Positions 1 to 14,956 of a stretch of 17,291 bases of DNA are shown in pieces. Each line of letters starts with the position of its first letter. Position 1 is the stretch's first letter. The DNA comes from a virus. Taxonomy: Duplodnaviria; Heunggongvirae; Uroviricota; Caudoviricetes. The stretch lies in IMG/VR virus record IMGVR_UViG_2541047683_000005, one strand, 5' to 3'. The notes below the pieces were generated by a model. That model had not been told where the DNA came from. It saw only the letters and a program-made list of their open reading frames with translations, and did no database searches. A program made the translations under genes and the position numbers.

Positions 1-2757
1 TCAGTTCCCCACCGCCTTTCCAAAATCCGGTGCTCTACGTGGCGCAATAGCACCCGGTTCCCACCAACTCGTTATGTCGAACTCCCGTTGCGCGCGGTCC
101 CTTACTCGATCATTGTAACCAGGGTTTGCCATCTCCTGAAGTTGTTGCAATATCAGGTGATTGGTTATCGCTTTCGCATACCACAGGTTTGCGAATGGAG
201 TGATCATGCGGGCTGTTTTCAGTGCATCGGCACCGAATGATGTTTCTTCACCCTGTAGAGCCTTCTGTGGGTTAGTAATCAGTAATTTTGTTAACTGCTC
301 TGCAAAGCTCAACACAGGGCCACCCATAGTGGCACCGATGCTGGAGCCATATTGCGTATGGTCCTGGAAAATAAAATCACCGTAGATACCGAACGAACCA
401 CCTTTCAGTAGAGCCTGAACCCATGTGGTTGGTTTTGTCATATCCAGCGGGTCATTACCATTTAACAAACTGTTCATCTGGATCGCAAACATACCAGCAA
501 GAGTTGTTCCCCCGATATATGAGGCCAGAAATTTAATGGCCGGAACGGTGTCCAAATCCCGTGTTCTGTTAACAAGTTGCCGAAATCCAGCAAATGGGGT
601 TGTTTTGAAGAGCATGAAGCTCTTCATTAACTCGCCAGCATCATCACGGGCATATGTATCAATACCCGTAGCGGTGGTCACAGCATTGGTCATCTCACCG
701 TGCGTAATTCCCAGCAATTTCTGGGCTGCTTCAGCGCGTGCATTACGAATCATGCGCGTGATGGTCTGCTCAGCCTCAGCGTCGAATGCTTCTTTCATCC
801 GTTTCAGGCGTTCTGGAGGGAGATCTCCAAGGGCTGCCAGTGCCTTTTCACTCCCGGCACGAATCCGGGCAATACGGTCTGCCATAATGTCGGCGATTAC
901 GTTATCGGGCACAGCGTAAATCGCGTCTGGCGTCATCCCCATATGCCCGGCAGTAGTCATCGGCCTGAGTTCTGCCGCTGCCATGATGGCCCAGTCCTCA
1001 TTGCTCCATCCCTTGTTAGCCAGAATGGTTTTATCGGTTCCTTTTATATCGTCCAGCGTCTTAAATTTTCTGGTCAGCTCGCCAATATTTTTGTACATCA
1101 GGAGACCAAACGACGCTTTGTTTGCGCGGTCCATAGCGATCAGCCCGGACCACTTCAGTGTCTTCTCTGCGAACCAGCCAGTTATGCCGCGAGACAAGTC
1201 AAACCCGCCCATTTTCGAAACCACAGCAGCATGTGAATCCACCAGCAGACCGAGTTCAGCATTCGCCTTTTTGGCATCTCCACTAAACAGGTTTTTGATA
1301 GTGTTAACGGAAAGCCGCATTCCACCACGGGTAAAGCCCAGCGCCTGCGCATTTGCCCGCATAATTGCCTGGTCGCTGGTTGCTGTCAGTACGCTGGTGC
1401 CAAGCATGGCGCTGGTCATCAGGTTACGCAGACCACCAACTGCTGAAGAGAACACACTCGATGAAGCGACACCATTTAGGCCAGCCATTGAGTTGAACAT
1501 ACGGGCAACTAATTTGGCCTCATCCTCCATTTCTTTTTTGCGTTTCCCGCCTGTTACTGCGCGCTTATAGATGCGATCCAGTACCAGGGAAAAGTTTCTT
1601 TCGGCGTCCGGACCAAAGGCTTTAACGACGCCCAAATCCCTGGATGATGATTGCAGGTGCGACATCATCACCCCCACCAGCGGCTGCTGAGTGTATCGCT
1701 CCATATAGGCGAAGTGTGACTGCGCATCCTTGAACGCCATCACCCTGTGCTGAGAACCACGGCTCTTTATTCCTCCGGCTCCCATAAATGTACCAGGCTC
1801 AATTTTGTTTGCCCCATCAGTGGCCTTCGTTTCAAAGATCGCTTCCAGTGCCTGACGGTACTCGACGTCATTCATAATGCTGCCGTCAGGATTAACGTAA
1901 TTGCTGCGATCCTGCGTGTTGTAAGCGTCATCAACCCATTTCTGGCGGGCAAACTCAATCGGTGGCTGGCGACCTGAAAGACGTGCTGTAGCTTGCTCTG
2001 CCACTGGTAACGATGCCAGCCATTCTTCGCGCCCGGCATTGCGAATAAGGTCAGCATCATCCACATATGGCGTATGCCAGTCTTCTCGCAGGCCTATGTC
2101 AAAGCCGTTGTCGTTCATCTCATGACGAACACGGCCTGTTACATCCTTCCAAATCTGTGCAATTTTCTTCGCCAGGGGATTACCGGTATCTTCGCCATAA
2201 ATTTCTTTCAGGATCTGGAGTTGTGCAGACTTTGCCGCCTGCCTGTCGAATACACTCCGAAACCGCTGCTCTCCAAGCGCCCTGCTCTGCTCGAAGAATT
2301 TGCGGACGTCATCACCTGCTTTTAGAAGTTCAGCACTGAGCTGACGGGACCAGTCCTGATATGCCCCAATTGCAAGCTCTTCAGCAGAAGTAACGGAGAT
2401 ATCAGCTTTGTCTCTCGATCGTCGGCCAGCAAAAATAAACTGCTGCAAATTAACAGGTGTCTGCTGATCAGGCGGGATGTTAGCATCGAGAGTGTCAGTA
2501 ATTTTACTGATGGCGATCGCATTCTGGGCAACACGCTGTCTTTTCTTGTACACATCATGAACCACACGCTGGCGTACCAGTTCTGCTGCATCCATGTATG
2601 TTTGAGCATCAGGAATACCACTTTTGCCTTCTTTTGCATTCTTTCTGTGCACATGCTGCACAGCTTCTTTGATACGATCTTCAATATTTTTCAGCTCATC
2701 AGCCTTTGGCTGGCGACCAAGTGTCTGCGCAATAGCTTCCACACATGCCTGTTTCAT
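1..2757 (-). CDS. Large hypothetical protein, 918 aa; candidate phage virion-internal/ejection-type protein (function unassigned)
   Basis: Uninterrupted minus-strand ORF ending with TGA at 3..1. The track ORF starts at 2778 but that codon is GTG (plus strand 2776-2778 is cac) with no nearby SD. The ATG at 2757 (MKQACVEAI...) has GAGGAA 6 nt upstream and overlaps the upstream stop as TAATG, so it is the preferred start. Protein is rich in A/G/S/T/N/Q with almost no Cys and has Gly/Ala/Ser-rich hydrophobic stretches (e.g. LAGLNGVASSSVFSSAVGG). No catalytic motif recognised. Confidence 0.65.
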   Translation of the reverse strand: MKQACVEAIAQTLGRQPKADELKNIEDRIKEAVQHVHRKNAKEGKSGIPDAQTYMDAAELVRQRVVHDVYKKRQRVAQNAIAISKITDTLDANIPPDQQTPVNLQQFIFAGRRSRDKADISVTSAEELAIGAYQDWSRQLSAELLKAGDDVRKFFEQSRALGEQRFRSVFDRQAAKSAQLQILKEIYGEDTGNPLAKKIAQIWKDVTGRVRHEMNDNGFDIGLREDWHTPYVDDADLIRNAGREEWLASLPVAEQATARLSGRQPPIEFARQKWVDDAYNTQDRSNYVNPDGSIMNDVEYRQALEAIFETKATDGANKIEPGTFMGAGGIKSRGSQHRVMAFKDAQSHFAYMERYTQQPLVGVMMSHLQSSSRDLGVVKAFGPDAERNFSLVLDRIYKRAVTGGKRKKEMEDEAKLVARMFNSMAGLNGVASSSVFSSAVGGLRNLMTSAMLGTSVLTATSDQAIMRANAQALGFTRGGMRLSVNTIKNLFSGDAKKANAELGLLVDSHAAVVSKMGGFDLSRGITGWFAEKTLKWSGLIAMDRANKASFGLLMYKNIGELTRKFKTLDDIKGTDKTILANKGWSNEDWAIMAAAELRPMTTAGHMGMTPDAIYAVPDNVIADIMADRIARIRAGSEKALAALGDLPPERLKRMKEAFDAEAEQTITRMIRNARAEAAQKLLGITHGEMTNAVTTATGIDTYARDDAGELMKSFMLFKTTPFAGFRQLVNRTRDLDTVPAIKFLASYIGGTTLAGMFAIQMNSLLNGNDPLDMTKPTTWVQALLKGGSFGIYGDFIFQDHTQYGSSIGATMGGPVLSFAEQLTKLLITNPQKALQGEETSFGADALKTARMITPFANLWYAKAITNHLILQQLQEMANPGYNDRVRDRAQREFDITSWWEPGAIAPRRAPDFGKAVGN

Positions 2758-4817
2758 TATGGGTTCCTCAAGAAGCACGCTGCCGCTACAGAATAAACCT
2801 TCGATTCGTTCTGGACTGTCTTAATCTGTTCATCCAGCTCAGCCAGGAGATCAGAAAGTTTTGTCGGGTTTCCGGTTTCCGGGTGAGCTATAGTCAGCTC
2901 AGGATTGGCAACAGCCATGTCCCTGGCAGCCATAAGGTCATAGCTGTTGGATGAGAGAACCTGCCCTGTATCTGGATCAACGCTGACGTCCCCTCTGTGT
3001 TCACCAGCCGATGAGAAAGCACTTTCAGCACGAGGGACAGGCGATTCACTAATTGGCTCTGATGATGTTTCATATCTGACACCATTTTCTTCAAAAACCT
3101 TTTGTATTTCATGGTATTGCTCTTGGTAAGTATCAGATATATCTGATCGCAATGGACCATCAAGCCCTCGCGCCATCCCCCCAACATTTACAGGCTGACC
3201 ATCATTAAGTTGCCTGTATGCTTCATCCATGGCGTCAACATGACTGTTGATGCTCTCATTGCTGGTGTGAAGCACTGGTGACGATTCAATATCGTAATGA
3301 AGCCCCTCATTCAAAATGTGGGCTGCATCAATATCGCTTGGTTTTATTCTTTCCCTCGCCCGGATACCAAAAACTTTTTCTACTGCGGCTTCCAGTTTCA
3401 TATTGCGAAGACGCATACTTACGAGTAACCGTAACTGCTCAGGTGTAACGGTTCCAACCTGAATACCACTGTATCTGAATATATAGGCTTTAAAACCTGA
3501 AATAATTTTTTCCCATGACGAAACGCTTGTCTTTAGAGATGGATTTACTGCATGTGCGGCAACTTCTTCAGCGTATAACCACTCAGGATATGTTTCAGGG
3601 TACTCACCCCTTTTCTTATATTCATAATATTGTGACATCCCATATGCAAATTCAGGATAGTCAGAATGCTTGTTTGCAGATTTAAGTACAGCATTAGCTA
3701 GCTTTCTGGCCTTCCAGTCAGGGTAATGGCGCTGCTCAAGATGAAGCGCCTCATGATGAAGGGTTTCTAACAGTTCTTCATGGTCTTTTAATCCATTAAT
3801 ATTTATTCTTATTATTGGTTCTTTTCCAGAAGCTACTGTCACATGACCTTTATTCAGAAGTATTTCTCCATCACTATTTTTTATTGCTGGTTCATTAATA
3901 AGTTCTATTACTCCTGAATCAGATAAATCACGAACCATTGACTCAATGTTACCATCAGGAGATTGCTGATAATGTTCACCAAAAGTTGATTTTATTTCTT
4001 CTGCAGAAATGTTCGACTCTGTACCATCATGGTTATTATGGGTAGTCAGGTGATGAACGCCACCAAAGACCCCGCCTAAAACGGCATCGACTAACATCGC
4101 CTGACCGTCAAATACCCGGTACTGTTTTGCCATCTCCGTGTAGCCTTTTTCCTCCAGTGTTGCACCGACAGAGTAACGGTTCAGTCCACCGAATCCGGTG
4201 TTGATTGCCACACCTGAGGCAATGCGCGTTGCCAGTGTGGTGCCGACGGCAGCGGGTAAGGCCATACCCACAGCATTGAAAAGGCTCTGCTGCGTTGCCA
4301 GGTTACGCGCCGTAGCCTCATCTACTCCCTTCCCTTTAAAATCCTGATAGGACTGCTCATACGTAGAACCGAAGGCTGTAGCAGCGCCGATGAGTGGGCC
4401 GCCAAACATAGTTGTTCCGATTGCAGGAACAAATTTACCAAGCTCATTTAATACCTCAGCCGCCATTCCCTGGCTGCCTGCATCAGGCTTCACATAGCTG
4501 CGGGCATCCTGTAACTGTTTTCCGATCGTGTCGTATGTATCATTCAGTGTTTTGTCAGCATCAGGGAACATCTCCCGAAAAATATTAACAGTCGGTGCCA
4601 CGTCTGCGGTAAATGCCGGATCGCTAATCAGGCGCTTGCTGAATCCGACGGCAGACTGCGCGAGACCGAGAGCCCCCTCCGCCACGCCGCTCAAAAGTGC
4701 AGTACCTGAACCCTGGAAGGGAGTCGGATCGTAGTCTTCTGGCCTTGCTGGGTTGGCAACTGTTTTGTCGTCAATCCATGCCTGACCTTCTGGAGCCAAA
4801 GAAAAAACATCAGACAT
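2757..4817 (-). CDS. Large hypothetical protein, 686 aa, with glycine-rich hydrophobic segments and an HExxH (HHEALH) zinc-metallopeptidase-like motif
   Basis: ATG at 4817 overlaps the upstream stop as TAATG; GAGGG lies 7 nt upstream. N-terminal third has glycine-zipper-like hydrophobic segments (GKFVPAIGTTMFGGPLIGAATAFG; LVDAVLGGVFGGV). HHEALH is encoded at 3741-3758, inside a visibly AT-richer patch (about 3400-4060). Confidence 0.65.
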   Translation of the reverse strand: MSDVFSLAPEGQAWIDDKTVANPARPEDYDPTPFQGSGTALLSGVAEGALGLAQSAVGFSKRLISDPAFTADVAPTVNIFREMFPDADKTLNDTYDTIGKQLQDARSYVKPDAGSQGMAAEVLNELGKFVPAIGTTMFGGPLIGAATAFGSTYEQSYQDFKGKGVDEATARNLATQQSLFNAVGMALPAAVGTTLATRIASGVAINTGFGGLNRYSVGATLEEKGYTEMAKQYRVFDGQAMLVDAVLGGVFGGVHHLTTHNNHDGTESNISAEEIKSTFGEHYQQSPDGNIESMVRDLSDSGVIELINEPAIKNSDGEILLNKGHVTVASGKEPIIRININGLKDHEELLETLHHEALHLEQRHYPDWKARKLANAVLKSANKHSDYPEFAYGMSQYYEYKKRGEYPETYPEWLYAEEVAAHAVNPSLKTSVSSWEKIISGFKAYIFRYSGIQVGTVTPEQLRLLVSMRLRNMKLEAAVEKVFGIRARERIKPSDIDAAHILNEGLHYDIESSPVLHTSNESINSHVDAMDEAYRQLNDGQPVNVGGMARGLDGPLRSDISDTYQEQYHEIQKVFEENGVRYETSSEPISESPVPRAESAFSSAGEHRGDVSVDPDTGQVLSSNSYDLMAARDMAVANPELTIAHPETGNPTKLSDLLAELDEQIKTVQNESKVYSVAAACFLRNP

Positions 4818-7348
4818 TATTCAACCCTCACGACAATAGCTTTATTGGTTCTGGGATCTGTTGCCCAGCGTCCGCTACCATTTACAAGCCGATACCGGTT
4901 ATTGCCGATATTAACTGGCGTGAAATTTGACACTGCATTTACGTTAAGTCCGGCATCTTTCAGTGCTTGTTTCGCAGATGTGGTATAGCGATCTTTGAAA
5001 GTAGATTTATCCATGCCGAAAGGCATTACAACGTCGCCGCCATTAAAACCATTGTATATACCGCCAGTAGCATACTTCACGGCATCAGCTACAATGTCTG
5101 TATCAGGCATACTGGTTCTTACCGTAGATGCATCACCAGATTGATAAGCTATTCCTGCATAAGCGGCTTTGAAAAGGCTATAACTGATCTGGCGTAACTG
5201 CGGGTTACGGGCAAATGCATTACCTACCTGTTCGTCGAAAGCGTCTTTCATCTTATCTTCGCTCGGCAACTGTACCGGAGTTATGCCCGCATTCTTCATG
5301 GCCTTCGTCGGATTCAGTAGTTGGTCGCCGGAAAGAATAACCTTTGCAACGTCGTACTTGTTCATCGTCGGCTTATACCCGATGAACTGACTATATGGGA
5401 TCGTCGGCTTGGTGTTGTCGTACTGGTTATCCGGCGTGCCCAGCAGCAGCGCAGAATAGGCTGTTGCCGCACTGTTCGGAGCAATTACAGATGCCACCTG
5501 CCGTATTGCTGGCGCAGGCAGCTTCTCCCCCATGCTCTGCAACAGTTTAATTGTCTGGTCAACGTTCTGAGTGCCGCGCACCTGCTGTGCCAGCGCAGCC
5601 GCCTCTTCACTGTTGAGGATTGGGGCATTAATTCCCAACGCGCGTAAGCTTTCCTGCGACGAGAAACGGTTAGCCACCTCGGCAGTGATGTCGTCAGGGT
5701 TGTTGCTGGTGATCGGCTTATAGGCTCCGATTTCCACCGCTGCACTAAACGGATTATTCTGCCTCTGGGTTATTACCTTCGTGGCTGCCGCCGATACCCG
5801 GTCGAATAACTCCGCACGAGACGCATACCCCTCCCCTGTTTCACCAGTATCCGGGCGCAATTGCTCAACATATGCGGTAATGCTGCTTGTCGGCATGTTG
5901 CGGAAAGAGCCTATATACTGTCCGGCGATCTGCAAATTTCTGAACTCGATATATCGCAGGTTTCCTTCTCTGACACCATAAGCTGCAATGAACTCATCCT
6001 CACCAGGTGGGTTAGGAAATTCAACGCCACGCATAAACGCAGCCGTCGCATCGCGAACCCTGCTATCGAGCATCGTTCTATATTCAGCCTGCTGCTGTCT
6101 GGCTAATGCATCCGTCTGTCGCAACACGCTGGCCTGATCTGATTCATTTAAAGCATCGAACCAGGCTACACCGGTATAACGTTTATTTTTTGTCGGTAGC
6201 TGAGAAAGCCCCAGTGCGGCACTAACACCTGCAGTTAACTGCTGATCACTGTATGGCTGGCTACCGTTTTCATGATGGATAATGGCTGCACAAAGCGCCT
6301 TCAGGGTATCAGGATTTGATGCATCGAGAGGCTCATCAGCAGAAACGCCAAGTTGTTCGCACACTGCTTTGATATACGACATAGTGTCATTTTTATCAGT
6401 AGGCGGTGCCCAGCGATTAATTATCTCGCTGACGGTATCAATACCCTGCCGCTGATACGACATCAGGTTCCGCCCTAATGCACGAATACCGTGTTCAGGG
6501 GTTTCGAATTTGGCAAAGCGACCATCATCACCAGTCTGCCCAACCCACGGATTAGTTTTGCTGTATTCAAGATTGCCGGGGTTATTGTTGCGTATACCGC
6601 GGGTACGATCGGAAGAGCCACTATCTGCTACAGCACGGCGAGATCCAGCAGCAGTATCGCTTAACTCGCCGTTTTGCTGTCTTACCTGAAGATAGTTTGC
6701 TCCAATAGCATTTTGAGCAGTTGCTTTTGCTGTTGCTTCTTTAAACTCGATTTTCTTGGCCTGGATTTGCTCGTCGCTCCAGCCATGCGCAATACCGTAA
6801 TCCTCAATTTGCTGGAAAGTTTGCGTATTAGCCAATATGTATGCTGCGTTGTCGCCATATAATGCTGCGGCATTTTTACCATTATTCAGCAGTGTCGCCT
6901 GAAACTGGCCTTCTTCGTAGGCATTTATTTGCCCTATCTCGTACCTCCCGGCCTGCGTAGTGAACTGAATGCGCTGCTGCTGCGCCTGCTGCATGAAAGC
7001 ATTACGAGCCTGTTCATCCGGCAGCGACATAGCCAGTTGTTCGACCTGAGCATCAAACTGCTGTGTATACTCATGGCCTTTTCCAATAGCATTTTTCCCT
7101 TTCAGATTAAGCAATCCTGTTTCAGGATTATTCAGCAGATCACTGCCTGTCTGACTGAGTTTAAGGGATGCCTCCTGAACCAAGGCAATATTGGCGCGCT
7201 GTTTTGCCTGACCAAGAACATCAATTGCCTCTGTCCCTGCCCGAACAAAAGCATCACCAATACCTGGCTGAGAAAACGTCTGCAAGCCTGCTGACTGAAC
7301 TCCACGGCTCTCAACCTGACGTCCGGATACTGTTGGTACGACTGGCAT
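4817..7348 (-). CDS. Large hypothetical protein, 843 aa; candidate phage virion-internal protein (function unassigned)
   Basis: ATG at 7348 with GGGGG 6 nt upstream; stop overlaps the next gene start (TAATG at 4815-4819). Gln/Ala/Asn-rich N-terminus typical of phage structural proteins. Conserved-looking segment RNNNPGNLEYSKTNPWVGQ...RWAPPTDKNDT at about aa 251-330 (nt about 6239-6598). Confidence 0.65.
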   Translation of the reverse strand: MPVVPTVSGRQVESRGVQSAGLQTFSQPGIGDAFVRAGTEAIDVLGQAKQRANIALVQEASLKLSQTGSDLLNNPETGLLNLKGKNAIGKGHEYTQQFDAQVEQLAMSLPDEQARNAFMQQAQQQRIQFTTQAGRYEIGQINAYEEGQFQATLLNNGKNAAALYGDNAAYILANTQTFQQIEDYGIAHGWSDEQIQAKKIEFKEATAKATAQNAIGANYLQVRQQNGELSDTAAGSRRAVADSGSSDRTRGIRNNNPGNLEYSKTNPWVGQTGDDGRFAKFETPEHGIRALGRNLMSYQRQGIDTVSEIINRWAPPTDKNDTMSYIKAVCEQLGVSADEPLDASNPDTLKALCAAIIHHENGSQPYSDQQLTAGVSAALGLSQLPTKNKRYTGVAWFDALNESDQASVLRQTDALARQQQAEYRTMLDSRVRDATAAFMRGVEFPNPPGEDEFIAAYGVREGNLRYIEFRNLQIAGQYIGSFRNMPTSSITAYVEQLRPDTGETGEGYASRAELFDRVSAAATKVITQRQNNPFSAAVEIGAYKPITSNNPDDITAEVANRFSSQESLRALGINAPILNSEEAAALAQQVRGTQNVDQTIKLLQSMGEKLPAPAIRQVASVIAPNSAATAYSALLLGTPDNQYDNTKPTIPYSQFIGYKPTMNKYDVAKVILSGDQLLNPTKAMKNAGITPVQLPSEDKMKDAFDEQVGNAFARNPQLRQISYSLFKAAYAGIAYQSGDASTVRTSMPDTDIVADAVKYATGGIYNGFNGGDVVMPFGMDKSTFKDRYTTSAKQALKDAGLNVNAVSNFTPVNIGNNRYRLVNGSGRWATDPRTNKAIVVRVE

Positions 7349-9584: not shown

Positions 9585-11711
9585 TTAATCTTCTGCTTCA
9601 GGCTGGAACATCAGCACGTAAAAAATATGCTGCTTCCCGCCAATCCTGCCGAGCGCCTTTTTCTTGTAACGGCGGTCGCCTCCCGCTTCCAGCATTCCGG
9701 CAGCACTCAACGCGCGGGCAAAGTGGGACGGGTTAAATCCCTGTGCGATCTCCCCCTCAAACACATGCGGAAACGTGTAAAAACGGAACTCATCATCTTC
9801 ATTTCTGATACTCCCCTTTCTGTATCCGGCAAGGTCTTTAATCGGTAAATCACGCTCATCGCTGTTTGGGTAGGGAAGGTATCTACTGAACCCGAACGAC
9901 GACAAAAACGCCTCAGCCTGTTCAACCATCTGTTTAAATTCCCTGTTGCCCGTGCCGAATTCCTTCACCCAGGCATTAAAGTTATGCTGAACTGCATCAC
10001 GGCACGCCTGAACATCCCAGCCTGTAACATGACCGGAAAGCACAAGCGCGGCCTCCAGTACGGCGAATCTTTCCCCCACGCGGTGAACCTGCTCGCCGTA
10101 GCTCTCCGGTATCAGGTTGCGCCACCGCTCGCGACATGCCCTTACCGCGTCCTTTGCCTCCTGCTGGTGGCCTGCCAGCCATTTAACCCACTCACGACCT
10201 GCCGCCCCGTGATTTTCTGTCCAGGCATCTTTTAACGCGTCTGCGTGCGCCTTTCCGGTGCTGTATTCGTGAAACTGCGAGGCCTTTTCCATCGGCACGT
10301 TAAGCAGACGGACAAGCTGCCCCGCTTTAATTTTTATCCCTTCCGTTTTGAGGAATGTTTCAACGTCCATTTCTCCGGTGCTGATTGCCACCGTGCGCCA
10401 GTGTTTTATCTCCCTGTTGCCGCCGTCCTTCGCCCCCTGTAATTTCCCGGAACCGTTAAACAGCGTATAGGCTGACGTGGACACCTCCCGCGCGTTTCCG
10501 GCCTGGCCTATTTCATCCAGGGGTAACAGCCCGTCATTATGTGCTTCGGCCTCGTTGGCGATACCTAACGCCGTTCCGTACCAGGTCAGCCGTTGCGCGT
10601 CCGGCTCTCCCCATAAACTTGATGCAATGTTCTGTGTGGTGGTTTTACCTGCTGATGATTGCTCAAAAAGATGAACCCCGAAGCCGTCAGCACCCACCAG
10701 CCCGATTAATGGTGCGGATAGCGATACCGCCACACCCAGCATCATGGACGGATTACCACCAGCCAGCCGCGCCACGGTATCGCGCCAGCCCTCCGCTGTT
10801 CCCGCCACGGAATAGCCATTAACTGCGGCAGTTTTTCCGGTAAACAGGATGGGTTTCTCTGATTCACCAATGACCGAACCATCCGGCATGATGTACGCAC
10901 CAAAATGCCAGCCCGTTGTAGTGCTTAGCTGCCATTCCTCATGACTTCCGCTTAACTGCATCCAGTCAGCCAGGATGGCTCTGTATTTGCCGTTGGTCGT
11001 CACGTTAAGACCGTGGTCTTTCAGCAACCGCCAGCCGTCACGGTCACCAATGCCTCCGCACGGGACCGCCATTGTAATGACCTCATGGTTTGCTGGTTTT
11101 TTCCAGCGCATCACGCGGTAATGCTCTTTGCCGATTGTTCCTGTTCCCAGTAGTTCAAGCGGAGAACATAACCACGTCTCAGGCCGGATAATTTCGCCTG
11201 ACTGCTTGTCCACTTTGGGCGTTACCCAGAAAACACCATCGACGCGACTTTCAACACGAGGCTTTAATTCGTCATCATAATTTCCGGTGAAATTTGTCTT
11301 TGCCGGAAGGTTGATCACCAGACTGTTACCGCGTTCCGCATCATCCTTCAGTCCAGCCATGCGCGGTGTCCAGTCCTCCGGCTGCTGGTCAACAAAGCTG
11401 CGGTAGCAACGCGCCTCCTTCACACCCGCCACTGCAAGCAGTGTCGCTATCTGTGTAAGGTGCTGCTCTGATATTTCACCAGCACGATAAACGCGCACGT
11501 AATAGCGCCCTTTGTCGATGATTTGCGTGTCTGCCAGACTCGCCAGTTGTTCCGGTCCAAGAATAACTGGATGTGTATCATCTGCCGCAATATGCTTTCC
11601 GGCCCATTCGCTCCACTCTTTCGCATGTGCCCAGGCATCACTACCCGCAAAGATAATCACCTCCGTCATTTTGTCTTTCGGCTGGTGCTTTAAATTCGGT
11701 GCGCGTTTCAT
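9585..11711 (-). CDS. Replication protein, 708 aa (primase/helicase-like with P-loop; DUF927-like)
   Basis: Large ORF with a P-loop-like motif (QSSAGKTT) mid-protein. Start ATG overlaps the upstream stop as ATGA (11708-11711). Position between alpA/regulators and the iterons matches pri-rep genes of P4-like and PICI-like elements. Family assignment is from memory of domain architecture, not a search. Confidence 0.7.
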   Translation of the reverse strand: MKRAPNLKHQPKDKMTEVIIFAGSDAWAHAKEWSEWAGKHIAADDTHPVILGPEQLASLADTQIIDKGRYYVRVYRAGEISEQHLTQIATLLAVAGVKEARCYRSFVDQQPEDWTPRMAGLKDDAERGNSLVINLPAKTNFTGNYDDELKPRVESRVDGVFWVTPKVDKQSGEIIRPETWLCSPLELLGTGTIGKEHYRVMRWKKPANHEVITMAVPCGGIGDRDGWRLLKDHGLNVTTNGKYRAILADWMQLSGSHEEWQLSTTTGWHFGAYIMPDGSVIGESEKPILFTGKTAAVNGYSVAGTAEGWRDTVARLAGGNPSMMLGVAVSLSAPLIGLVGADGFGVHLFEQSSAGKTTTQNIASSLWGEPDAQRLTWYGTALGIANEAEAHNDGLLPLDEIGQAGNAREVSTSAYTLFNGSGKLQGAKDGGNREIKHWRTVAISTGEMDVETFLKTEGIKIKAGQLVRLLNVPMEKASQFHEYSTGKAHADALKDAWTENHGAAGREWVKWLAGHQQEAKDAVRACRERWRNLIPESYGEQVHRVGERFAVLEAALVLSGHVTGWDVQACRDAVQHNFNAWVKEFGTGNREFKQMVEQAEAFLSSFGFSRYLPYPNSDERDLPIKDLAGYRKGSIRNEDDEFRFYTFPHVFEGEIAQGFNPSHFARALSAAGMLEAGGDRRYKKKALGRIGGKQHIFYVLMFQPEAED

Positions 11712-12010
11712 TTTTTGCCCCTGAATGCGTTAATCATGTTCTTTATTACCTGAATATTTGCCCGTGCTTTCTCTTTACTGGTGGGCTTACTGCGTGGTGC
11801 TGCACATACCAGTGAAAAATCACGCCGGAACTGATGAACGGGCATCACACAGTCATAGTCGTACCCTGCGCGGCGGTATGTAATGTGCCGTTCATACACG
11901 GAATTAATAACCACGATGTCGCCATATTTATCCCGGAAAATATCCCCGATCCTGATTTTCGGGTGAGTCTGTCCGCTGGCATTTAAGCCAGTAAATTTAA
12001 TCTTCTTCAT
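11708..12010 (-). CDS. Small hypothetical protein, 100 aa (possibly DUF4222-like)
   Basis: ORF translationally coupled to the replication gene (ATGA overlap). Sequence pattern IGDIFRDKYGDIVVINSVYERHITYRRAGYDYDC resembles small conserved prophage proteins; family assignment is tentative. Confidence 0.5.
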   Translation of the reverse strand: MKKIKFTGLNASGQTHPKIRIGDIFRDKYGDIVVINSVYERHITYRRAGYDYDCVMPVHQFRRDFSLVCAAPRSKPTSKEKARANIQVIKNMINAFRGKK

Positions 12011-12012
12011 GT

Positions 12013-12270
12013 TTATTTCCCGGTATGGGGTTCTTCTTTATATTTATGGGCTAACAAATCTGGTAATTGCCTGTATTTATCCTCGGCAATATATTCAGAA
12101 TAATCGACAGCACTGTTCAGTATATCTAACGCCGTTTCATGCTCCAGATTCGAAACTATAAGGAACGTTGCTACTTTTAGCATATTCGCGATATGCAAAA
12201 GAGCATCAATTTCATTTTTTGGCGCTTCGCTGAATTTTTGCTCCAGAAGAATAAATCGTTCATCACGCAT
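12013..12270 (-). CDS. Small hypothetical protein, 85 aa
   Basis: ATG at 12270 with strong SD AGGAGGA 6 nt upstream; overlaps the upstream ORF stop by 8 nt. Acidic, helical-looking protein with no recognised domain. Confidence 0.55.
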   Translation of the reverse strand: MRDERFILLEQKFSEAPKNEIDALLHIANMLKVATFLIVSNLEHETALDILNSAVDYSEYIAEDKYRQLPDLLAHKYKEEPHTGK

Positions 12271-13231
12271 AGTGTTCCTCCTGACGGATGCGGGCAGTAA
12301 ATACCATCACGCAGCCAGCCGGGGATTGCTGACGGGCTTCCTGTTCGCTGGTGGCCTCGATGTGGATTACGCGCGGTTGTGCCGTACTCAGGGCGATAAA
12401 ACGCCAGATAAAATTGTTTTCGCATTTCTGAATAAACAGCGTGTTTTCTTCGCGCCCTTTCCATGTTGCCGAGATATAGCCCATGTCATTGAGCATCTCG
12501 CAGGCATCAACCAGCGTATCAGCGGCTACGTGTACAGTGTTTTTACCGTCAGCTATGCAATCACGGTGCACCGCCAGGAAGGTGTATATAAATTTAGGGT
12601 GAGTTTGGGTATGCTGTGTTCCAGCCATAATCGTTACCTCGTTTAACGGTTTGGTTAGACGCCCTGCATGTGTTGCGAGCACTGCGGGGCGTTGCTCTTT
12701 CAGGTGTATTTCACCTTTGCTTTTTAATTTACTCACTGGTGAAATACACTTCAAGCCTTTTTTTATCATTTTTTTTGCGTATACTGACATACACCAATTT
12801 TTAGGAGATCCAGAAATGGCAACTGGTGCAAAGAACGCAAAATCACAAATGACAACTGTCAGAATCCCACATGAAGTAATGGATGATATTGAGCAACTTA
12901 AAGAACCTGGCGAAAGTACCGCTGGTTTTTTAGTTACTGCCGCAAAAGGCGAGATCAAACGCCGCCAGCGCCGCAAGGCCAAAGAACAGGAATAGCCCAC
13001 CAGCAAGCCAGCACATTCACCATAATGACCCTCGGTTAAAGCTAGGGTCATTACCTCGTCGTTATCCAGAACTGAAACGGCATCAGTAACATTGCTGATT
13101 TCCAGCGCAGCACACACATCAGCGCCAACAAACCACGGCTCGCCGTTGATACTCACTATGCGCACCTGAATGTCATCGAATTTAATGACAGAGATTTCAG
13201 TGCGCCCGGCATAAAAGACAGGTTTACGCAT
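12263..13231 (-). CDS. Bro-N domain protein ORF (322-aa open frame; probably composite, true 3' extent uncertain)
   Basis: ATG at 13231 with GGAGGTGA 6 nt upstream, 2 nt after the antirepressor stop. N-terminal ~70 aa match the Bro-N pattern (INGEPWFVGADVCAALEISN...LDNDE). The middle of the frame is Cys/Ser-rich and looks non-coding: it is antisense to a plus-strand RHH gene and runs through an AT-rich promoter-like region. The last 122 aa have their own SD (GAGGT) and ATG at 12628 and may be a separate gene, 12263..12628. Confidence 0.45.
   Translation of the reverse strand: MRKPVFYAGRTEISVIKFDDIQVRIVSINGEPWFVGADVCAALEISNVTDAVSVLDNDEVMTLALTEGHYGECAGLLVGYSCSLALRRWRRLISPFAAVTKKPAVLSPGSLSCSISSITSCGILTVVICDFAFFAPVAISGSPKNWCMSVYAKKMIKKGLKCISPVSKLKSKGEIHLKEQRPAVLATHAGRLTKPLNEVTIMAGTQHTQTHPKFIYTFLAVHRDCIADGKNTVHVAADTLVDACEMLNDMGYISATWKGREENTLFIQKCENNFIWRFIALSTAQPRVIHIEATSEQEARQQSPAGCVMVFTARIRQEEHYA
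12703..12750. promoter_or_regulatory. Inverted repeat (candidate operator) in the RHH-gene upstream region
   Basis: GGTGTATTTCACC (12703-12715) and GGTGAAATACAC (12738-12749) form a 12/13-bp inverted repeat with a 22-bp spacer, followed by T-runs and a TATACT -10-like hexamer (12780-12785) upstream of the RHH gene SD/ATG. Confidence 0.4.
12816..12995 (+). CDS. Small ribbon-helix-helix (Arc/Mnt/CopG-like) DNA-binding protein, 59 aa
   Basis: ATG at 12816 with SD AGGAGA 7 nt upstream. Protein MATGAKNAKSQMTTVRIPHEVMDDIEQL... has a beta-strand-like TVRIPHEV followed by two helical segments and a basic tail (KRRQRRKAKEQE). Only convincing plus-strand gene; antisense to the long Bro-N frame. Confidence 0.5.
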   Translation: MATGAKNAKSQMTTVRIPHEVMDDIEQLKEPGESTAGFLVTAAKGEIKRRQRRKAKEQE

Positions 13232-13991
13232 GGCTGCTCACCTCCATGCGGCGGGCTAACCAGCGTTGCGAAAGGCGAATTAATTCAGCTTTCCGCTGGT
13301 GGTAGTCCTGGCCTAACTCAATCAGCGTGATATTGCTCTGCTCAAGGTAAGAAAGGTGCTCAAGCTGCAACGTGCTCATGTGGTCGCGTGGTTCGCCTGT
13401 GATGCCGTTCGCCTGCGCCCACTGTTTTGCAGTCATGCCACCCAGCACGATACGCGCCAGCATATTGGCTTCCGTGGTGTAGTGGTGCTGGAGCGTGTTT
13501 TTACCCAGTTCAGCCCGGTACGTCTCCAGCGCGGCGCACATAGGCTTAAAGTGGCTGGCTACGGTGATACGGGCTTTCAGTTCCCGGCGTAACGCTGCGG
13601 AACGTACAGGCGCTATCTTGTGTAGCTCCTCCTCGCATTTGATGAAGTACTGACGAACGGCGCGGCCCTGATCATTGCGTTCGATCATTGCCAGTTCTTT
13701 CGCCATTCCGACACTTAACAGATAGTCTTTACCGGGTCTGCCAGAGTGCTTAATCTTGCTGTAAGCCGCGCCATTCGGGCTTTTCCCCAAATTTGGGGAA
13801 ATTGTTTTATGGACTGAGTAATCGTACCCAATGGTGAAGTCATATTCAGAGATGCGATCAGTGATCCATGTAGAGAAGTCTTTTCCCACGCCCAACGCTT
13901 TGTGTAACGCTTTTGCGCTAACAACAGCGGCTTCACGCCCGCCAATAACGCCGGATGCTACCGGAATAATTGCAGCAAAATTCTTAAGCAT
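13224..13991 (-). CDS. Phage antirepressor, AntA/AntB-domain protein
   Basis: 255 aa. N-terminal region VVSAKALHKALGVGKDFSTWITDRISEYDFTIGYDY...GRPGKDYLLSVGMAKELAMIERNDQGRAVRQYFIKCEEEL matches the AntA/AntB antirepressor signature. ATG at 13991 with GGGGGTGA upstream; overlaps the Rha-like gene by 8 nt. Confidence 0.75.
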   Translation of the reverse strand: MLKNFAAIIPVASGVIGGREAAVVSAKALHKALGVGKDFSTWITDRISEYDFTIGYDYSVHKTISPNLGKSPNGAAYSKIKHSGRPGKDYLLSVGMAKELAMIERNDQGRAVRQYFIKCEEELHKIAPVRSAALRRELKARITVASHFKPMCAALETYRAELGKNTLQHHYTTEANMLARIVLGGMTAKQWAQANGITGEPRDHMSTLQLEHLSYLEQSNITLIELGQDYHQRKAELIRLSQRWLARRMEVSSHA

Positions 13992-14758: not shown

Positions 14759-14956
14759 TCAAGCAGCCGTTCCGCGTGATTCGGCAATACGCTGATTGAT
14801 CCATTCGTCAATTTCACTTTCAACGAAAGCAATCGCTCGCGAGCCAATTTTAACTGATGCAGGAAATTTACCTTGCCCCATAAGGCGATAAATCCATGCC
14901 TTGCTATATCCAGTTCTACGCTGAACTTCTGTTAAACGAATAAGCGTATTTGACAT
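14759..14956 (-). CDS. alpA: AlpA-family transcriptional regulator (prophage CP4-57-type regulatory protein)
   Basis: 65 aa. MSNTLIRLTEVQRRTGYSKAWIYRLMGQGKFPASVKIGSRAIAFVESEIDEWINQR matches the AlpA helix-turn-helix and the conserved E-IDEW-xQR C-terminus. ATG at 14956 with GAGGT upstream. Confidence 0.9.
   Translation of the reverse strand: MSNTLIRLTEVQRRTGYSKAWIYRLMGQGKFPASVKIGSRAIAFVESEIDEWINQRIAESRGTAA

Follow-up and report, generated by a model that had tools for sequence, protein, structure and literature searches.

Introduction

The question raised by this locus is what is done by an inverted repeat that lies between two divergently oriented genes, one encoding the small protein YlcI and the other, icd-like, standing first in a leftward operon, in the 17,291-nt stretch of DNA analysed here (referred to throughout as the window). 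A previous sequence-only reading had taken the repeat for the possible operator of an Arc/Mnt-like circuit, in which the small protein, thought to be of the ribbon-helix-helix (RHH) type, would control neighbouring antirepressor-type genes. What emerges on following this up is that the repeat is made of O1 and O2, two members of a rigidly arranged set of three predicted YlcI boxes, and that these boxes (O1 – O3) probably constitute the operator set through which YlcI represses both the icd-like/DUF4222/DUF927-primase operon and itself. The operator half of the earlier proposal is thus supported (by the three boxes, their register with two promoters, their covariation with the protein and an RHH-fold model), while its other half is not, since the antirepressor-type genes Rha and Ant are not the targets. 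That YlcI is what actually binds the boxes, and that it acts there to repress rather than to activate, we infer.

Autoregulated RHH repressors with operators lying over divergent promoters are a well-known kind of system. What would be new is a repressor role for the YlcI/YnfO family (DUF3950), a three-box operator, the existence of many specificity classes and a candidate antisense RNA, together with the presence of this module in Gram-negative PICIs, the prototype EcCICFT073 included. In the searchable literature no functional study of the module came up under YlcI, YnfO, DUF3950, Icd-like or EcCICFT073.

The island and its gene order

The window is identical in sequence to part of the chromosome of E. 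coli strain E1, where the island adjoins tRNA-Gly. The order on the minus strand is integrase, int-alpA RNA motif, a 267-aa coiled-coil protein, AlpA, Rha, AntA and a BRO-N remnant, after which comes ylcI, the sole gene on the plus strand; beyond it, again on the minus strand, follow Icd-like, an 85-aa ORF, DUF4222, a DUF927 primase/helicase-like protein, SSB, ProQ/FinO, PerC and three large unannotated proteins. Late genes and capsid genes were not seen in the window. Gram-negative PICIs (int-alpA-pri satellites) are recognised by int, alpA, a Bro-type zone and a primase/SSB replication zone, all co-oriented, by a tRNA or fixed att site and by a size of about 10-20 kb; the window shows these features and is an E. 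coli PICI-like island of this type, for which an organisation into an integration zone, a Bro zone and a replication zone has been described (PMC10111431, PMC13612085). The same ylcI / icd-like / DUF4222 / primase arrangement is found in the prototype EcCICFT073, and 1015 of 5426 complete E. coli genomes (about a fifth) match parts of the 1.1-kb region. Co-transcription of the icd-like/DUF4222/DUF927 genes is suggested by reading frames that overlap or abut.

Several further observations concern the island itself. Between int and the gene for the 267-aa protein is the int-alpA RNA motif (Rfam RF02996; 15965-16032, minus strand; 41.4 bits, gathering score 35.8). At the distal end, proteins of 843, 686 and 918 aa (4817-7348, 2757-4817 and 1-2757, minus strand) are encoded co-directionally with overlapping junctions; RefSeq lists them as hypothetical, neither Pfam nor PADLOC gave a match at E ≤ 1e-3, and a PICI operon for cargo or defence that has gone unrecognised is a possibility. 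Of the BRO-N antirepressor gene a truncated remnant is left (12996-13231, minus strand), mislabelled “transporter” in RefSeq, and in two relatives (H2 and H3) an intact BRO-N gene plus additional DNA is found where the window has a deletion. A 322-codon open frame (13231-12263), which crosses ylcI in antisense, then the control region, and enters icd-like, was rejected as a gene: it is the BRO-N remnant joined by the deletion to an accidentally open leader. This leader, preceding the Icd-like ATG, is free of in-frame stops in many loci, and its amino acids are not conserved. The Icd-like protein of the window has 121 aa, as against 60-110 aa in relatives, and resembles an internal duplication (PKFIYTFLAV..., NNFIWRFIAL...).

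The inverted repeat and the three boxes

The arms of the repeat are GGTGTATTTCACC (12703-12715) and GGTGAAATACAC (12738-12749). Within them the perfectly complementary core is 12 bp long (GTGTATTTCACC; 12704-12715 against 12738-12749) with a spacer of 22 nt, exactly as had been claimed, and it can be extended to 17 nt with 15 of the 17 positions paired. Its centre, at 12726.5, is 89.5 bp 5' of the ylcI ATG (12816), where about 90 bp had been given, and the T-runs and -10-like TATACT that had been pointed out nearby were located at 12759-12777 and 12780-12785. A repeat of this quality is not expected by chance: in 2000 first-order Markov versions of the 187-bp intergenic region, with spacers of 3-60 allowed, the longest perfect inverted repeat was 10 bp, and none of the 2000 attained 12 bp.

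Two features had been missed by the sequence-only reading. Each arm is in itself a mini-palindrome of the form GTG-N5-CAC, and a third related box, CTGACATACAC, stands at 12784-12794, straight after the TATACT hexamer. All three are listed, with the other features discussed below, in Table 1.

Table 1 Features of the control region and adjoining genes (positions are those of the window; promoters, boxes, hairpins and the operon are predictions)
Feature	Position	Strand	Remarks
Leftward operon after icd-like: 85-aa hypothetical, DUF4222, DUF927 primase/helicase-like (replication zone)	9585..12270	-	
Icd-like gene, first in leftward operon	12263..12628	-	
Candidate antisense-RNA -10, TATGCT	12610..12615	+	putative; weak consensus, 7/12 in window
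Small hairpin CGTTA/TAACG, loop CCTCGTT	12632..12648	+	3/5 pairs covary; strand assignment weaker than for terminator
Predicted intrinsic terminator: GC-rich hairpin (12658-12693) + T-rich tail	12658..12701	+	ends 3 nt before O1
Box O1, GTGTATTTCAC (left arm of repeat)	12704..12714		orientation opposite to that of O2 and O3; spans about +5 to +15 of predicted leftward transcript
P_icd predicted -10, TAAATT, 17-nt spacer	12726..12731	-	placed solely by consensus and conserved position
Box O2, GTGAAATACAC (right arm of repeat)	12739..12749		occupies first 10 nt of -35/-10 spacer of leftward promoter
P_icd predicted -35, TTGAAG	12749..12754	-	TTGAnn here in 48/48 distinct promoter variants
ylcI predicted -10, TATACT	12780..12785	+	conserved hexamer at fixed distance
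Box O3, CTGACATACAC	12784..12794		begins at base 5 of ylcI -10 TATACT; ends 21 nt before ylcI ATG
ylcI, 59 aa, YlcI/YnfO family, RHH fold (model)	12816..12995	+	

Elsewhere in the window such sites are lacking. No further copy of the 12-mer occurs in the whole 17.3 kb with up to 2 mismatches allowed, and the matches to the box at 2 mismatches number 10, the 3 real boxes among them, against 4.7 expected. Two apparent extra operator copies, at 14807 and 14944 (2 mismatches), were discarded as being at chance level and without the GTG/CAC frame. The suggestion that the same repeat might recur upstream of the Rha/Ant genes failed in a search across the window, in which no box was found near Rha, AntA or alpA.

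Conservation of the layout and the promoters

Scanning one genome per species gave 77 related loci, spread over the Enterobacterales, to which EcCICFT073 was added. Their hosts are Escherichia, Salmonella-like genera, Yersinia, Pectobacterium, Dickeya, Serratia, Xenorhabdus, Proteus, Morganella, Providencia, Gilliamella and one Pasteurellaceae isolate, and nearly all of the 77 share a single layout. Read along the ylcI strand this comprises the Icd-like start, a small hairpin, a GC-rich hairpin with a T-run, O1, a gap of 11-14 or 24 nt, O2, the complement of TTGAC(G/A), a T-rich stretch bringing the distance from the end of O2 to (G)TATACT to exactly 30 nt, O3 beginning at base 5 of that hexamer, 21 nt that include the Shine-Dalgarno sequence, and finally the ylcI ATG.

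The hexamers of the two predicted promoters are fixed points of this arrangement. On the minus strand a -10-like hexamer follows TTGAnn after 17-18 nt, the spacer being filled by O2 (48 variants), and the start of O1 falls no more than 2 nt from where the -10 ends in 33 variants, while in 14, among which is the window, it is displaced by a further 10-11 nt. The homologous P_icd is detected by a promoter scan tool in two other loci, as TTGACG-18-TATAGT (L037) and TTGACG-17-TACGAT (L031); that of the window was missed by the tool because its 8/12 consensus matches fall below the threshold. P_icd would be a sigma-70 promoter. For ylcI the -10 is TATACT in 35 of 49 variants and TATAGT or TATAAT in a further 8, invariably 30 nt after O2; a -35 is not recognisable, the sequence upstream of the -10 being T-rich.

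The YlcI protein

YlcI matches the NCBIfam family NF041551 (YlcI/YnfO) at 64 bits (cut-off 30, E = 9e-18). The structural model, which is of a monomer, has a β-strand at approximately residues 11-17 and helices at 19-28 and 35-58, and thus has the β-α-α fold of some 45 residues that defines the ribbon-helix-helix superfamily. By sequence there is no match to a Pfam RHH family at E ≤ 0.01, a profile search of PDB sequences with YlcI returned no RHH protein at E ≤ 10, and the one signal, a weak one, is a pairwise alignment with Arc (E = 0.002; hhalign probability 9%). In Arc the base-contacting residues of the β-strand are Q9, N11 and R13. The residues of YlcI in register with these are M12, T14 and R16, of which R16 is invariant.

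No homologue of YlcI was found among 50,697 phage records, and the region is also without a phage DNA match; with no phage match by either protein or DNA, a phage origin for ylcI was rejected. A second YlcI subfamily (L067-L078), with an IRFP strand and an NFSAWVI helix, is nearer to the YlcI of K-12 and occurs in Serratia, Pectobacterium, Gilliamella, Xenorhabdus and Bisgaard taxon 46; the three-site layout is kept there, with boxes of 12 bp, e.g. GTGCATAAACAC. Generality of the arrangement to the ylcI of the K-12 prophage DLP12 was considered and dismissed: in that prophage the gene stands opposite nohD, with the cos region in between, and has no such boxes.

Covariation of the boxes with the protein

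Among the loci the GTG/CAC frame is constant while the five central bases (N5) vary, and they vary together. On average the cores of one locus differ from each other at 0.42 positions, as compared with 3.38 between loci with different β-strands. For three separated sites to change in concert a trans-acting factor is required that has changed along with them. For example, the strand QMTTVRIP, that of the window, pairs with GTGAAATACAC (O1 inverted), KKLEARVP with three direct copies of GTGTCAGCCAC, QQLNARFP with GTGAATCGCAC, QALKARVP and QSLKSRVP with GTGTGGCCCAC, QSITVRVL and QSVTARIA with GTGTCTTACAC (O1 again inverted), and LQVSVRLP with GTGAACACCAC. Inversion of O1 is confined to some specificity classes; in most, all three boxes are direct repeats.

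Of the YlcI alignment columns, residues 14 and 12 have the highest mutual information with box class, that of residue 14 being as large as the entropy of the column; the values are inflated by shared ancestry, and several other columns score high too. A strict two-residue code is ruled out, because one residue pair can accompany several cores, as K/Q, K/S and Q/N each do. In two cases the boxes were predicted from the YlcI protein sequence alone, and both predictions proved correct: a Salmonella locus with the strand LQVSVRLP, in a YlcI whose C-terminal half resembles that of the window, has GTGAACACCAC at all three positions, and EcCICFT073, with the strand QALKARVP, has GTGTGGCCCAC at O1 and O2 and CTGTCCCCCAC at O3. 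The EcCICFT073 module (L083; NC_004431.1 1380473-1381052) is a variant in which the small leader hairpin lies after the anti-Shine-Dalgarno sequence and not around it.

The boxes do not track the other genes of the module. In one locus (L002) YlcI and the boxes are identical to those of the window while the DUF927 protein is just 48% identical, and loci in Yersinia and Phytobacter keep the window's boxes despite very different Icd-like proteins. An alternative source of the covariation could be that YlcI and its boxes travel as one hitch-hiking, recombining cassette. Among islands resident in the same genome, 1 of 26 pairs belonged to the same class, against 2.6 expected; this difference is not significant (P = 0.25), and the idea that co-resident islands are mutually orthogonal was dropped as unsupported.

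A predicted plus-strand terminator and a candidate antisense RNA

The two hairpins between O1 and the Icd-like start are conserved as structures. Over 45 distinct aligned sequences 98.8% of cells are paired, with compensatory double changes in 14 of 19 pairs (the terminator hairpin contributing 11 of its 14 pairs), a degree of covariation matched in 0 of 500 shuffles and in no slid register. The plus strand has 86 G.U cells against 0 A.C cells, which implies that it is on this strand that the structure has been selected, and T density after the stem is 5.1 per 10 nt there as against 1.4 on the other strand. With a covarying GC-rich stem and a U-run on the plus strand, 12658-12701 has the expected attributes of an intrinsic terminator, as which it is here predicted to act. 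All genes upstream of it being on the minus strand, a transcript ending at it would be antisense to the icd-like leader and start.

Such a transcript would be a ~78-nt RNA complementary to the icd-like ribosome-binding site and start codon. A candidate of some 78-79 nt (~12623-12701) has a predicted fold of -35.3 kcal/mol (z = -5.0), and the loop of the small hairpin, CCTCGTT, is complementary to the icd-like Shine-Dalgarno sequence; 12623-12701 is put forward as a candidate new cis-antisense RNA of Gram-negative PICIs. The first icd-like codons contain a block, AAATTTAGGGCGAGTTTGGGTA(TG/GA)CTGT, that is conserved even at synonymous sites and includes a recurrent -10 candidate (TATGCT or TAGACT), with 8/12 consensus matches in 20 of 55 loci; no convincing promoter for the antisense RNA was found. 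The plus-strand block AAATTTAGGGTGAGTTTGGGTATGCTGT (12591-12618; icd-like codons 4-13) has almost invariant nucleotides across genera, synonymous sites too, which suggests an overlapping non-coding constraint, possibly an antisense promoter.

C4 and isrK RNAs have been reported in the Bro zones of some Gram-negative PICIs (PMC10111431). Neither Rfam family matches here at the gathering threshold or at E ≤ 10 (12400-13300 and 12560-12830 searched), and known RNA families more widely (C4, isrK, sar and others) were set aside for the control region with nothing at E ≤ 10; an R1162 antisense match of 19.9 bits was discarded as sub-threshold and on the wrong strand.

Alternative explanations

The repeat might work as a hairpin in RNA transcribed across it, serving as an attenuator, a terminator or a processing site, either in minus-strand read-through from the Rha/Ant genes or, on the plus strand, as a small hairpin at O1 followed by a T-run. 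The minus-strand arms do form a 12-13-bp stem (-18.1 kcal/mol, z = -4.5), and on the plus strand AGGTGTATTTCACCT with TTGCTTTTTA after it was picked out by a scan tool as terminator-like. However, most specificity classes have O1 and O2 in the same orientation, unable to pair, so that a hairpin role would not be conserved; moreover the arms vary as copies of one box and without compensatory substitution, O3 has the same box sequence yet no pairing partner, and the positions of the boxes are fixed relative to promoter hexamers. The terminator call at O1 was rejected as incidental because the box there varies with YlcI class, and a role for the repeat as an RNA hairpin is barely credible. Three repeated boxes and an AT-rich stretch beside a replication module are also reminiscent of origin iterons, which are known in PICI origins (PMC6092414) and would here be bound by the DUF927 primase/initiator. 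Against this stand the identity of the boxes in the L002 locus, whose DUF927 protein has diverged so far, the covariation of the boxes with YlcI residues 12 and 14, their precise alignment with the -35 and -10 hexamers belonging to two promoters, and the position of mapped PICI origins, which are placed in the replication zone next to its primase, SSB and DUF5906 genes (PMC10111431). We see very little prospect of the boxes being iterons.

That the boxes are bound by some other factor (AlpA, Icd-like, a helper-phage protein or a host protein), with YlcI variation merely co-travelling in one cassette, draws on the fact that the covariation between boxes and YlcI is correlative, and on AlpA being the known activator of these islands (PMC6092414), with sites downstream of alpA that are unmapped. 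Against it, the positions at which YlcI varies coincide exactly with those making base contacts in RHH proteins; in addition, Icd-like proteins are highly divergent among loci with identical boxes, and a host protein would be unable to account for more than 15 different cores. We allow another factor a small chance. As for the Arc/Mnt-type immunity circuit of the sequence-only reading, in which the RHH protein would govern the Rha/AntA/BRO antirepressor genes, the modelled RHH fold of YlcI, the antirepressor-family genes less than 1 kb away and an antisense RNA loosely like the sar RNA of phage P22 all speak in its favour. But those genes lie upstream of, and convergent with, ylcI rather than downstream of the operator, they have no boxes near them, there is a single RHH gene, and in many related loci the antirepressor genes are absent altogether, with alpA abutting ylcI and the boxes intact. 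This is not what one would expect of a circuit controlling ant, and the likelihood of such a circuit is very slight; the genes under control would instead be the icd-like/primase operon and ylcI itself.

Proposed mechanism and its significance

The preferred reading, repression by YlcI through O1 – O3, may be put in mechanistic terms as follows. YlcI dimers would bind the GTG-N5-CAC boxes, with the invariant Arg16 reading the constant GTG/CAC frame and β-strand residues 12 and 14, aided by their neighbours, determining specificity for the N5 core; if these two residues set specificity, the island families should hold different, mutually matched pairs of protein and box. With O2 in the -35/-10 spacer and O1 at or just past the start site, bound YlcI should exclude RNA polymerase from P_icd, so that replication stays off, while O3, which overlaps the -10 and start site of ylcI, would provide negative autoregulation. 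A second layer would be supplied by the ~78-nt antisense RNA, which would cover the ribosome-binding site and start codon of icd-like and end at the predicted terminator beside O1.

Induction of Gram-negative PICIs runs through the activator AlpA, whose overexpression leads to pri-dependent runaway replication of EcCICFT073 (PMC6092414). Since alpA is co-oriented with the operon, read-through from an AlpA-activated promoter upstream, running antisense across ylcI and thereby lifting repression, is a plausible override, although this is speculation.

The existence of a repressor in Gram-negative PICIs is an acknowledged open question (PMC6092414), and YlcI is a candidate for this satellite repressor. 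In its boldest form the proposal would make YlcI the master repressor, or immunity determinant, of Gram-negative PICIs and cf-PICIs, EcCICFT073 included, acting via three boxes and a cis-antisense RNA until AlpA read-through intervenes, with at least 15 orthogonal specificities set largely by two β-strand residues; this we advance only tentatively, thinking it rather doubtful as a whole. If true, it would amount to a natural, reprogrammable RHH recognition code. The protein-to-DNA specificities tabulated across many classes, with the operator sequences, could supply orthogonal repressor/operator pairs. The view of the circuit as one that governs antirepressor genes is in any event corrected.

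Comparison with known systems

A close parallel is the CopG/RNAII system of plasmid pMV158, in which replication is under negative control in two layers: a small RHH repressor works at the promoter of the replication operon, and the region where translation of the replication gene is initiated has a short countertranscript complementary to it (PMC4485353). The same two layers are proposed here. The differences are that copG is co-transcribed with repB while ylcI is divergent, and that the target of the RNA would here be icd-like, the first gene of the operon and not an initiator, the RNA itself being as yet a prediction. The site of CopG is a single pseudo-symmetric element of 13 bp, as against three boxes of 11 bp here. 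The Omega protein of pSM19035 (PDB 1irq, 2bnw) is unlike YlcI in using 7-bp heptads in long contiguous arrays, the present boxes being of 11 bp, 11-45 bp apart and with hypervariable cores.

The immI region of phage P22, with its repressors Arc and Mnt, resembles the present locus in RHH fold and in the register of the β-strand, and in having operators that overlap divergent promoters; the small antisense RNA (sar) of the same region would have a counterpart in the candidate RNA of the window. It has, however, two RHH repressors controlling ant, which is directly downstream of arc, as against one RHH protein and a replication operon here; what lies beyond the operator in the window is icd-like and then the primase, with antirepressor-type genes not downstream of it, and there is no significant membership of the same sequence family.

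Two comparisons with other mobile elements complete the picture. The Stl/Rpr repressors of Gram-positive PICIs (SaPIs) are likewise encoded by a divergent gene where the integration module of a satellite borders on its replication module, and YlcI would similarly keep its island quiescent, but Stl is a large protein of the helix-turn-helix type whose repression is relieved by proteins of the helper phage, in contrast to an RHH protein of 59 aa. The immunity RNAs P4 CI and P1 c4 (Rfam C4, RF01695, and isrK) provide a small-RNA layer of immunity beside an icd-type gene of a satellite or phage, as is proposed here; they are transcribed in the direction of the operon under their control, and their pairing sites lie in the same transcript, whereas the candidate RNA described here would be made from the opposite strand.
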